64,000 bases of DNA from NCBI GenBank assembly GCA_977017645.1, contig OZ360222.1, positions 93,558,001 through 93,622,000 on the forward strand. The letters are read 5' to 3'. The notes under the pieces were generated by a model. That model was not told the origin of the DNA. It saw only the letters and a program-made list of their open reading frames with translations, and did no database searches. Positions within the stretch are counted from its first letter, which is position 1, and each line of letters opens with the position of its first letter. Positions 43,054-45,733 of this stretch are shown piece by piece. The DNA is from Torpedo marmorata. Taxonomy: Eukaryota. The translations under genes and the position numbers were made by a program.

Positions 43054-44327
43054 GAAAGGGAAGAATTCTCCTATTTTTAAACATTTATTAGAAATATGGA
43101 ATAGAGGGGATAGGAGGGAAAGGGTCGATTTCTCCAAAAATGCCTTTATATCAAAATAAACTTATTCCATTTACTGTTGATAAACAATTATTTAAAATTT
43201 GGTTCCAAAAGGGAATTAAGAAAATAAATGATTGTTTTGAAACTGGTAAATTTATTACTTTTCAAAGAATGAAAGATAAGTTTAATGTATTATCAAATAT
43301 ATTGCTTATTATCAAATTAGAGCATTTCTAGTTGGGAAGTTAGGTTATAGTTTGACTCTACCAAGACAGAGTGAATTAGAATTATTAGTTACTAATGGAG
43401 GTGTAAATAAATTTATTTCTCAAATGTATAGATTGTTTCAGAGAAAAATCCCTAAAGTAGGAATTCATAAATCAAGATTAAAATGGGAATCAGATTTGAA
43501 TGTAACAATAGATGAAGAACATTGGAAAGAATTATGTAAACTAAGTATGACGAAGATTATTAATGTTAGATATAGATTAGTTCAATTTAATTTTTTTCAT
43601 CAATTATATTTAACGCCTAAAAAATTAAAGACATTTAATTCGACATTATCAGGCTTATGTTTTAGATGTAACAAAGAGGAAGGTTCTTTTGTACATTTTA
43701 CATGGTTTTGTCCAAAGATTTATGATTTTTGGTTGAAAGTTAAAACATTTTTAGATAAAGTATTGAGTATTATACTTCCAATGGACCCTATGATATTTTT
43801 GTTTGGAGATATTAAAAGAATTAGTATTAAGATGAAATTAAATATGTATCAAATAGAATTTTTGCGAATTGCTTTAGCTGTTTCTAAGAAATGTATTGCT
43901 ATTACATGGAAATCTGATGTAGATTTAGGGTTAGAGAGATGGCATGCAGAACTTCGTTCATGTATACCACTTGGAAAAAATTACTTATAATTTACGTAAT
44001 AAATATCATTTCTTTTTGAAAATATGGAGCCCATATATGAAGGCCGTTGGTTTAAGGATTTGAAGATCTCTGGACATCGGATCTGACTGGCGAACCTATC
44101 CTCCACAATAAAATTAGTTTATAGATGTGTTTTCAAGATTGACATTCTCCTTATTCTATTTTTTTCTTTCTTTTTTATTTTTATTTTAGTAGATTAGTAG
44201 GGATGGGAGGGTTAGGGAGGGGAGGGAGGGGGGGGGTGAAAATGTATCACAAGTATTTTGATAATTTCATATTTTACCTTTTGCATTTTGTGATTTAAAA
44301 TTTTAAATAAAATATTTAAAAAACAAA
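43054..44327 (+). mobile_element. L1/Tx1-clade LINE 3' portion
   Basis: ORF 43352..43990 KWESDL..CFRCNKEEGSFVHFTWFCPKI (zf-RVT-like CCHC). G-rich 3' UTR and A-rich tail. 16-bp TSD AACACAG(A/G)GACAACCC at 43038-43053 and 44328-44343. Confidence 0.9.
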
Positions 44328-44754
44328 AACACAGGGACAACCCAGGCTGTTTGCTTCATCCCTGCTCAATTCTCATAACACTCATGACTGGGCAGCCAAA
44401 TTTAGCTCCAACACAATCACTGACGATACTATCGTTGTTCGCCAAATAAGTGGAAGTGAGGAGTCAGAATACAGGATCGAGAATCTAGTTGAGGGGTGCC
44501 AGAACAACAATTCTGTTCTCATCGTCATCAAGGACAAGGAGCTTACTGTTTATTTTGGGAAGGGGAGGCCGAGTCACCATGCACCTGTCTTCATTGATGG
44601 GACGGAGGTGGAGACGGTTAGTTCCTTCAATTTCCTGGGAGTCTATATGTCAGAAGACCTTTCCTGGAGCCAGCACCTTGAGGCAACTGTGAAGAAGGCA
44701 CATCAACACCCACAGTATCTCAGAAGTCTGAGGAGATTTGGCATTTGTCAAATA

Positions 44755-45219
44755 CAGATGATCCCTACTTACGACCTATGCGACTTACGACCACCCGTAC
44801 ATACAGTACGACTGAAAAAAGTACTGTATAATTATTAAAAAATAAAGAAAAAATATATGTAAATATAAAAATTACACATCAGGTCCCGGGGATCCAGGGG
44901 CTGTTTATTTTGACGGACCAACATGGTGGCGGCCACGGGCCAGGAGGGTGCCGAGACGCCGCTGCTGCCGAATGTGTTCTATTTTTGGGACACGAAGGCG
45001 GTGGCGGACCCAGTGTTCGAGGTGGTGAGCGCAGGCCAAGTGCCGGTGGTGGTGGACAACGGGTCTTTCCAGTGCCGGGCGGGCTGGGCCGTGGACGAAG
45101 TGCCATGGCTCCAGTTTCAGAACGTGTAGGCCCAGAGTAACATACGTCCGACTTACGTCTATTTCGAGATCCGCCCGGTCGGTCAGAACGGAACTCGGAT
45201 GTATGTCGGGGACCATCTG
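44755..45219. mobile_element. Tigger/pogo-type MITE carrying a captured host-gene fragment
   Basis: TIRs CAGATGATCCCTACTTAC / GTATGTCGGGGACCATCTG. TA at 44753-44754 and 45220-45221. Interrupts the old Rex element. Confidence 0.88.
44923..45129 (+). pseudogene. ACTR5: Captured N-terminal fragment of actin-related protein 5 (ARP5, INO80 subunit)
   Basis: NVFYFWDTKAVADPVFE...VPVVVDNGSFQCRAGWA...PWLQFQNV matches the vertebrate ACTR5 N-terminus as recalled (NVFPFRDARAAPDPVLE...VPLVLDNGSFQVRAGWA...PRLQFRAV). DNGS is the actin-fold phosphate loop. Ends at TAG. Confidence 0.8.
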
Positions 45220-45733
45220 TATTCTATAATATTTCCACAGGTACCAAGTGGAAATAGTACAGTACTGACAAGTTGCATTACAGCCAAACCAGTAATGGAG
45301 AAGGCCCCAGAAGGTAACAAACATAGCCAGGTTCTGAACACACGCTTCGATCTTCCATGCATTGAAGACATGTATGTGTGGCACTGCCTCAAGAAGGCAG
45401 ACAACATCGCAAAGGACCCCCATCGCTCTTGTTGCAACCTCTTCTCACTGTTACCATGGGTTGGAACATACACATGTCTGAAGACCAGCATGTCTTGGTT
45501 TTCAAGACCAGTTTCTTTCCAACAACCATCAGACTCTTTCGCCTCCCCTTGTTACACTAATCATAGACTGTTCCAACAACACAAAAACAACCGTCTGCAT
45601 GATTATAACACCACTTTTTTTTTCTTGTACTATGATAACCATGAATAATTTTATCTATCATTTGTTTTCATTATCTCTTTTTAATCTAATTTATTGTAAT
45701 CCTATTTTAGCTGTTTTTTTTTACTCTATTTAC

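Follow-up and report, generated by a model that had tools for sequence, protein, structure and literature searches.

An ACTR5 First-Exon Fragment Carried by a Tigger/Pogo-Type MITE at About 230 Sites of a Ray Genome

Introduction

Gene capture by transposons is known in animals, and the published cut-and-paste cases that we found in vertebrates reach only a few copies. In the portions of their survey that are cited here, Tan et al. (2021; PMC8277862) counted 370 Pack-TIRs in 100 animals, four of them multicopy, and none in the elephant shark, the one cartilaginous fish looked up in their table. The multicopy elements include Xenopus Pack-hAT-N8_XT, which carries CAPSL 5' UTR sequence and is present in three copies, and Ssk-FB4 of the fly (the same portions of PMC8277862). 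A thousand copies are given for HelibatN3 of bats, whose cargo comprises the promoter, 5' UTR, exon 1, and part of intron 1 of NUBPL, and the same part of that report states that capture favoured the 5' ends of genes and that these were also amplified to a greater extent (Thomas et al., 2014; PMC4224331). In plants, the non-expressed copies of rice Pack-MULEs are CG-methylated according to the sections of PMC5861414 considered here. No report of the family described below, or of capture in rays, was found in the open literature (Repbase, Dfam, and subscription journals lay outside the search), and a term search of the main text of the Squalomix preprint (10.1101/2025.06.08.657570) returned no gene capture.

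Here we describe an element in a ray genome that is very probably a decayed copy of a non-autonomous Tigger/pogo transposon, the middle of which was replaced once by part of ACTR5 exon 1, and which then multiplied to about 230 sites, its copies being likely inert.

Results

Structure of the Element and Its Insertion Site

The window (the whole 64-kb stretch of DNA that was analysed, on contig C11) contains a sequence that the first-pass annotation had described as a 465-bp element with TIRs and a TA duplication interrupting an old LINE. The structural part of this description agreed with our analysis, since the inverted ends form a 15-nt pair at 93% and TA is found on both sides. The following features were assigned:

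44755–45219: Tigger/pogo MITE copy with ACTR5 cargo, 465 bp, with CAG at 44755 and ending in CTG at 45219
44753–44754, no strand: left TA target-site duplication, read from the sequence
45220–45221, no strand: right TA target-site duplication, read from the sequence
44755–44877, plus strand: left arm of the Tigger/pogo parent, an imperfect TIR of about 23 bp and then an AT-rich subterminal tract
44802–44808, plus strand: TA-CAG-TA, a 5-bp insertion within the left arm of the window copy, relative to the family consensus
44878–45137, plus strand: cargo taken from ACTR5, consisting of the 5' leader and the first part of exon 1, gene positions −36 to +221
44883–44900, plus strand: imperfect tandem duplication of a 9-bp unit, directly inside the left junction, from comparison of the gene, element, and parent junctions
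44923–45129, plus strand: decayed ACTR5 reading frame, 68 codons and a premature TAG, including the actin-fold DNGS loop
45138–45219, plus strand: right arm of the Tigger/pogo parent with the TIR at its end, from comparison of the consensus with family P
44323–44752, plus strand: old LINE, C-terminal part of the RT, 5' of the insertion, from amino-acid identity to RT ORFs
45222–45540, plus strand: the same LINE resuming 3' of the insertion, a collinear tblastn match after in silico excision
45258–45264, plus strand: second TA-CAG-TA, in the LINE, 37 bp to the right of the element, from the sequence

The cargo had been placed at about 44879–45138, one base away from its actual position, where it occupies 260 nt. 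In 100-nt windows contained within it the GC content is 59–69%, against 29–34% in the left arm. The TIRs of the family consensus are about 23 bp long with four mismatches, and relative to this consensus the window copy has a 6-bp deletion inside the cargo. The 9-bp unit at the left junction is present once in the ACTR5 gene of the assembly and is duplicated imperfectly in the element, which has no transposase of its own. Helitrons have rolling-circle ends and no TIRs; the TIRs and the TA duplication therefore set this element apart from them. Instead of the Mutator TIRs and 9–10 bp duplication of Pack-MULEs, a 2-bp TA duplication and pogo domains were found.

When the element and one TA were removed in silico, the flanks joined into one collinear LINE fragment, in line with the earlier proposal. 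The fragment at 44323–44752 shares 44–48% amino-acid identity with RT ORFs at loci L146, L160, and L164, and the LINE relatives contain the domains RVT_1 and PF09004, a pair that we take to indicate Rex1/Babar. Footprints of the form TA-CAG-TA are known for Tc1/mariner-type elements. The one in the left arm is likely the excision footprint of a CAG-ended element, and it suggests that such elements were still cutting after the window copy had landed. The second one possibly represents another excision footprint, in the LINE, and dropping 5 nt there lets the LINE frame read through; it may also have arisen by chance, because this type of 7-mer occurs 16 times in the window.

The Cargo Is the Start of ACTR5

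The first-pass annotation had recognized the cargo as the N-terminus of ACTR5, and database comparison led to the same gene: the best PDB match of the ORF was human ARP5 (E = 3.9e-7), with actins at 0.11 or weaker, and the ORF is 86% identical to residues 1–70 of Narcine ACTR5. The ACTR5 gene of this genome lies on contig C49, where eight exon matches span about 85 kb, most of them at 95–98% identity to the Narcine protein, a level that points to a host among the elasmobranchs related closely to electric rays; residues 546–586 were not found within 110 kb around the gene. The family consensus, built from 30 copies, aligns with ACTR5 exon 1 (G000:C49:13784120-13784372) at 248 of 253 nt (98.0%), and the window copy at 90.5%. 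The possibility that the locus might be the real gene, to be recognized by downstream ACTR5 exons nearby, did not hold, since the window contains only residues 1–74 and no further ACTR5 exon.

Compared with the consensus, the window copy has the changes R7Q (CAG), R22W and R64W (both TGG), A2V, and P15L, all at CpG, as had been suspected for the Arg positions that appear as TGG or CAG. The 68-codon ORF with the DNGS loop, which had been read as a feature of the cargo, is present at 44923–45126, but its length is a product of decay (the 6-bp deletion and a TCG-to-TAG stop); the consensus frame has 101 codons and runs through the right arm up to the TA. The YY1-like start attributed to this copy turned out to be mutated in it, with ATGGTGG where the gene and the consensus have ATGGCGG. 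The proposed uptake of first exon and 5' UTR was correct for the ACTR5 leader and exon 1, but only part of the exon is included, without the upstream promoter: the right edge of the cargo lies 166 nt before the splice donor of exon 1. The left edge lies near the start of the ACTR5 CpG island, with 0–2 CpG per 100 nt upstream of the cargo and 8–15 in bins across it.

Several matches that looked like longer captures (residues 1–133, 1–126, 1–88, and 7–87) were rejected, as they are ordinary copies in which the alignment had extended into the arm. The gene itself has an AT-rich palindrome of about 70 nt located about 100–170 nt upstream of the ACTR5 ATG (L031:1330-1410).

These edges bear on the nature of the template. 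An ACTR5 mRNA, or its cDNA, could have supplied its 5' end as the template, by RNA-templated repair of a break in a Tigger element that was then transposed; the left edge of the cargo lies 36 nt ahead of the ATG and near the beginning of the CpG island, the cargo consists wholly of leader and exon 1 with neither intron nor upstream promoter, and LINE RT sequence is abundant in the flanks. We consider this origin unlikely, since the cargo breaks off within the exon and shows neither a splice junction nor poly(A), and since other TIR elements of this genome, with DMRT1 and DMRTA cargo (see below), hold intron 1 sequence, i.e., were captured at the DNA level. A single DNA-level replacement within a Tigger element thus remains the preferred reading.

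The Arms Belong to One Type of Tigger/Pogo Parent

Relatives of the element were first reached by a search with the left arm, and the consensus of one group of them, family P, was built from 29 cargo-free copies. The ACTR5-family consensus matches family P at 99% over 114 nt in the left arm and at 100% over 75 nt in the right arm, and the interiors differ. Longer relatives with P-type ends were found at L148, L159, L179, and L180, and the domains CENP-B_N, HTH_Tnp_Tc5, and DDE_1 were detected in L159 and L148; because these longer relatives hold transposase domains, the interior of P is the ancestral one, which the ACTR5 piece came to replace. The Tigger relatives examined showed no intact transposase gene, and Pfam gave no match on the short transposase remnants of L102. 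The left junction has 1 bp of microhomology together with the 9-bp near-duplication, and the right junction has no microhomology. Since the terminal 8 bp differ between the ACTR5 family and family P, the identification reaches the parent type and stops short of the exact founding parent. By its TA duplication, its short TIRs, and the ends that it shares with a pogo transposase element it is a pogo/Tigger MITE, the tentative assignment to Tigger proper resting on the domain set and the form of the TIRs.

An arm pattern had 678 matches in the genome, making ACTR5 carriers a minority of this Tigger lineage; 60 further arm matches were assigned to P (29), sister family B (19), the ACTR5 family (6), and others (6). 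Several further observations were made on these relatives. Positions 4–9 of the TIRs differ among families A, B, and P, both ends changing together, and the inner arms are 90–100% alike. Most P-type copies (L242–L300, an arm-selected sample) contain a GC-rich minisatellite that the longer Tigger relatives lack; its unit is 50 bp long and is present from 1 to about 11 times. Family B (L064, L082, L115–L144) is 326 bp long and has a hAT-like end, a palindrome, TCTCGCGAGA, and a YY1-like GCCGCCATGTT; these are presumably promoter motifs, for BANP and YY1, respectively. A 43-nt piece of family B recurs in an unrelated repeat at L051. The interior of family B had no host source in its 40 best matches, each of which had at least one arm.

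The position of Tigger sequences around the source gene was relevant to a second alternative, in which a Tigger once resident at the ACTR5 promoter took the adjacent exon by end-bypass or as a two-element composite. One of the ACTR5 introns does contain a diverged Tigger relic, at a distance of about 70 kb from exon 1, but it is only 73–87% alike, and no Tigger arm match was found near exon 1 in this assembly. A 2,122-nt spliced ACTR5 contig from the probable RNA run X6 (aligned at L031:1469-1887) opens with 32 nt of the left arm and the junction, as would be expected of an arm at the promoter. The long identical cargo, though, lets an assembler join the element to the mRNA, and the simplest reading is that this contig is likely an assembly chimera through the identical cargo. 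Moreover, the two arms correspond to opposite ends of a single parent type, and both junctions fall within that parent. Such an origin at the promoter is, in our judgement, very unlikely. As for replacement within a Tigger element by a template switch near the gene and immediate transposition, as in the FoSTeST model, the junction anatomy fits, although no close parent copy was found within 110 kb around ACTR5.

Copy Number and Spread of the ACTR5 Family

A CpG-tolerant pattern across the junction of right arm and cargo gave 145 matches, against one for the control. Among these were 36 of 57 known copies, from which recapture gives an estimate of about 230 copies (192–294); the 57 marked copies came from other searches on the contigs listed and were the best-scoring ones, so that the estimate leans low. 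The 2,081 candidates of the similarity search were rejected as a copy number in favour of these two measures. The 40 scored similarity matches were all near full length, and the 39 besides the window copy were at 87–90%.

The sequence of 115 copies was examined. TA was present on both sides in 77 of the 95 copies with both ends aligned, none of 1,485 copy pairs (from the first 55 copies) shared a flank, and neither the rest of exon 1 nor unique upstream sequence was found in any of the 115 copy loci. Entry of the cargo into this one copy after its insertion, a reading that the first-pass annotation had left room for, is contradicted by these flanks and by the same junctions recurring at 145 sites. 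The element is thus a multicopy Pack-TIR: non-TE sequence is flanked by both ends of a TIR element, the parental locus has no TE ends beside the captured part, the cargo is no retrocopy of a multi-exon gene, and there are several independent insertions.

A subfamily of 39 of the 115 copies shares a 95-bp deletion between two GGCC tetramers along with linked substitutions, one of which perfects the right TIR; its frame lacks the DNGS loop and terminates after 42 codons. The spread of this subfamily indicates that transposition continued after capture. Contigs bridging the junctions of arm and cargo by at least 31 nt were found in runs of organisms A, B, and D. The ACTR5 of organism D and that of this genome differ at 6 of 258 nt, so that the family is probably older than at least one species split. 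Runs X13–X17, from organism G, share 13–15% of the words of the element. In X13 the cargo stretch was not covered at 82%, and the ACTR5 sequence of this run is a distant one, with 23 differences in 136 nt; the words shared by X13–X17 may be arm sequence and, if so, would hint at a possible horizontal transfer of Tigger.

The source gene, the breakpoints, the parent arms, the dispersed TA-flanked copies, and the deletion subfamily, together with the CpG-biased decay described below, were all read directly. The events that would connect them begin with a break or stalled fork inside a Tigger element, after which, during repair or replication, a template switch to the ACTR5 CpG island and back likely took place, once. 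The chimera would then have been moved many times in trans, likely by Tigger transposase, which a related full-length Tigger would have supplied, and the 95-bp deletion subfamily would have arisen later and spread too.

Decay of the Copies, Selection and Transcripts

Copies differ from the consensus of their own subfamily by 2.5–2.6% at non-CpG sites and by 13–14% at CpG sites. This bias of the decay toward CpG leads us to infer germline methylation as the probable cause of CpG loss. For coding changes, copies without the 95-bp deletion (n = 76) gave a non-CpG N/S ratio of 0.97 (p = 0.83), the 39 deletion copies 0.74 (p = 0.20), and pooled cargo-blind copies 0.76 (p = 0.07); in the G-of-CpG class the former 76, many of them chosen by similarity, gave 0.69 (p = 0.01). 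No clear coding selection on the copies emerges from these ratios, and, so many of the 76 copies being similarity-chosen, the mild deficit of amino-acid changes in some classes is compatible with weak selection without demonstrating it.

Some copies could nevertheless be kept for a function, whether they serve as mini-promoters with a CpG island, give rise to small RNAs against ACTR5, or encode truncated Arp5 peptides, an explanation that does not exclude the others. In addition to the mild deficits, the ATG and frame are kept in 33 of 50 similarity-chosen copies (by a loose tag), and run X18 has spliced ACTR5 together with element-junction contigs. However, assembled contigs reveal neither the strand nor the start nor the level of an RNA, and in them read-through or DNA is indistinguishable from a transcript of the element; among the records listed, none typed as RNA contained the element. 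The deletion subfamily is successful without the DNGS loop and with its early stop. CpG sites decay five times faster than other sites, alike in cargo and arms, and the YY1-like motif is not spared: its 10-mer is kept in 27 of 48 copies, against a mean of 53% for comparable 10-mers of the cargo. This decay and the ordinary loss of the motif are evidence against a retained promoter role. Retention for function is accordingly improbable in our view, and the copies of the transposed chimera are likely inert passengers.

Other Gene Starts in TIR Elements of This Genome

Sampling of the 60 further arm matches led to another GC-rich cargo, whose sole protein matches were to chondrichthyan DMRT1 (6 of 87 candidates). 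The true DMRT1 lies on C2 (G000:C2:246426982, L333), with more DM genes downstream. In about 33 copies inspected (L301–L332, L334), a TA-flanked MITE with CCGTATATTT-type ends was found to hold the DMRT1 leader, starting at about −186, together with most of exon 1 and a portion of the intron 1 minisatellite. A 23-nt pattern at the DMRT1 start had 3,699 exact matches in the genome and none for the control. Three long copies retain most of the DM domain, and most copies seen are internally deleted. Tigger arms related to those of the ACTR5 element also carry a deleted DMRT1 piece, with flanking sequence in common with the other MITE, and a hand-off of DMRT1 cargo between transposon families is likely. 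A third type of carrier is a hAT-like element in which a complete DM domain of DMRTA type is accompanied by the end of the exon and by intron sequence, at 93–94% identity to L336 over 804 nt. Its left end, CAGTGGCGGATTAAC, was present in all 13 loci checked, and both ends with an 8-bp duplication were read in L342, L345, and L350. Dozens more DM-domain matches are dispersed in the genome. The loci concerned are as follows:

L301–L305, L308, L310, L316, L319, L320, L322, L324: Tigger-armed DMRT1 carriers
G000:C2:256478233 (L336): likely DMRTA-type source
L339–L348, L350, L352, L355: copies of the DMRTA-type piece

These elements are evidence for recurrent first-exon capture in this genome. Tentatively, the ray genome might even house a vertebrate counterpart of the rice Pack-MULE system, in which several TIR superfamilies would repeatedly capture CpG-island first exons (ACTR5, DMRT1, a DMRTA gene, and probably many more), pass cargo between families, and amplify it to hundreds or thousands of copies; we see this as possible but still doubtful. 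If it were true, RNAs silencing the transposons could reach the parent genes, essential and sex-determining ones among them.

Discussion

Nearly all published vertebrate Pack-TIRs are single-copy and arose without transposition. Since the parent type, the gene that served as donor, the two breakpoints, about 230 copies, and a derived subfamily are all at hand, the family offers direct access to capture and to the large-scale transposition that followed it. Together with the DMRT1 start (at least 3,699 copies) and the hAT DM exons, the family makes two questions testable in a vertebrate, namely, what favours the capture and amplification of 5' CpG-island exons, and whether the silencing of copies affects parent genes. 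In practice, the ACTR5 and DMRT copies will confuse gene annotation, primers, and read mapping in these rays.

In the features that the cited portions of Tan et al. (2021; PMC8277862) describe, the ACTR5 element resembles other multicopy Pack-TIRs: host sequence lies within a TIR element, the parent gene is on another chromosome, transposition was repeated, and the cargo of 200–300 bp is GC-rich, with little or no microhomology, an anatomy that would be in keeping with their FoSTeST model. It differs from their multicopy cases in its about 230 copies, its Tigger/pogo carrier, its coding cargo, and the deletion subfamily that spread later. As in the part of PMC9219625 that treats the Tigger family of pogo, it has a TA duplication and TIRs in the 8–33 bp range, and its relatives have CENP-B, Tc5 HTH, and DDE_1 domains; unlike Tigger as characterized there, the element lacks transposase, and its assignment to Tigger proper, as against another pogo family, is tentative. 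Rice Pack-MULEs, in the sections of PMC5861414 considered, likewise hold GC-rich gene pieces in TIR elements, but they belong to the Mutator superfamily, with long TIRs, longer TSDs, and measured expression, whereas the ACTR5 family is known from sequence. With HelibatN3 it shares the amplification of a gene 5' end to high copy by a vertebrate DNA transposon; HelibatN3, as that part of PMC4224331 presents it, is a rolling-circle Helitron, and the ACTR5 element is a TA-duplicating TIR element without upstream promoter or intron. Against these systems the ACTR5 family is new by its scale: a coding piece of a first exon has reached about 230 copies inside a pogo MITE for which both the donor and the parent type are resolved.
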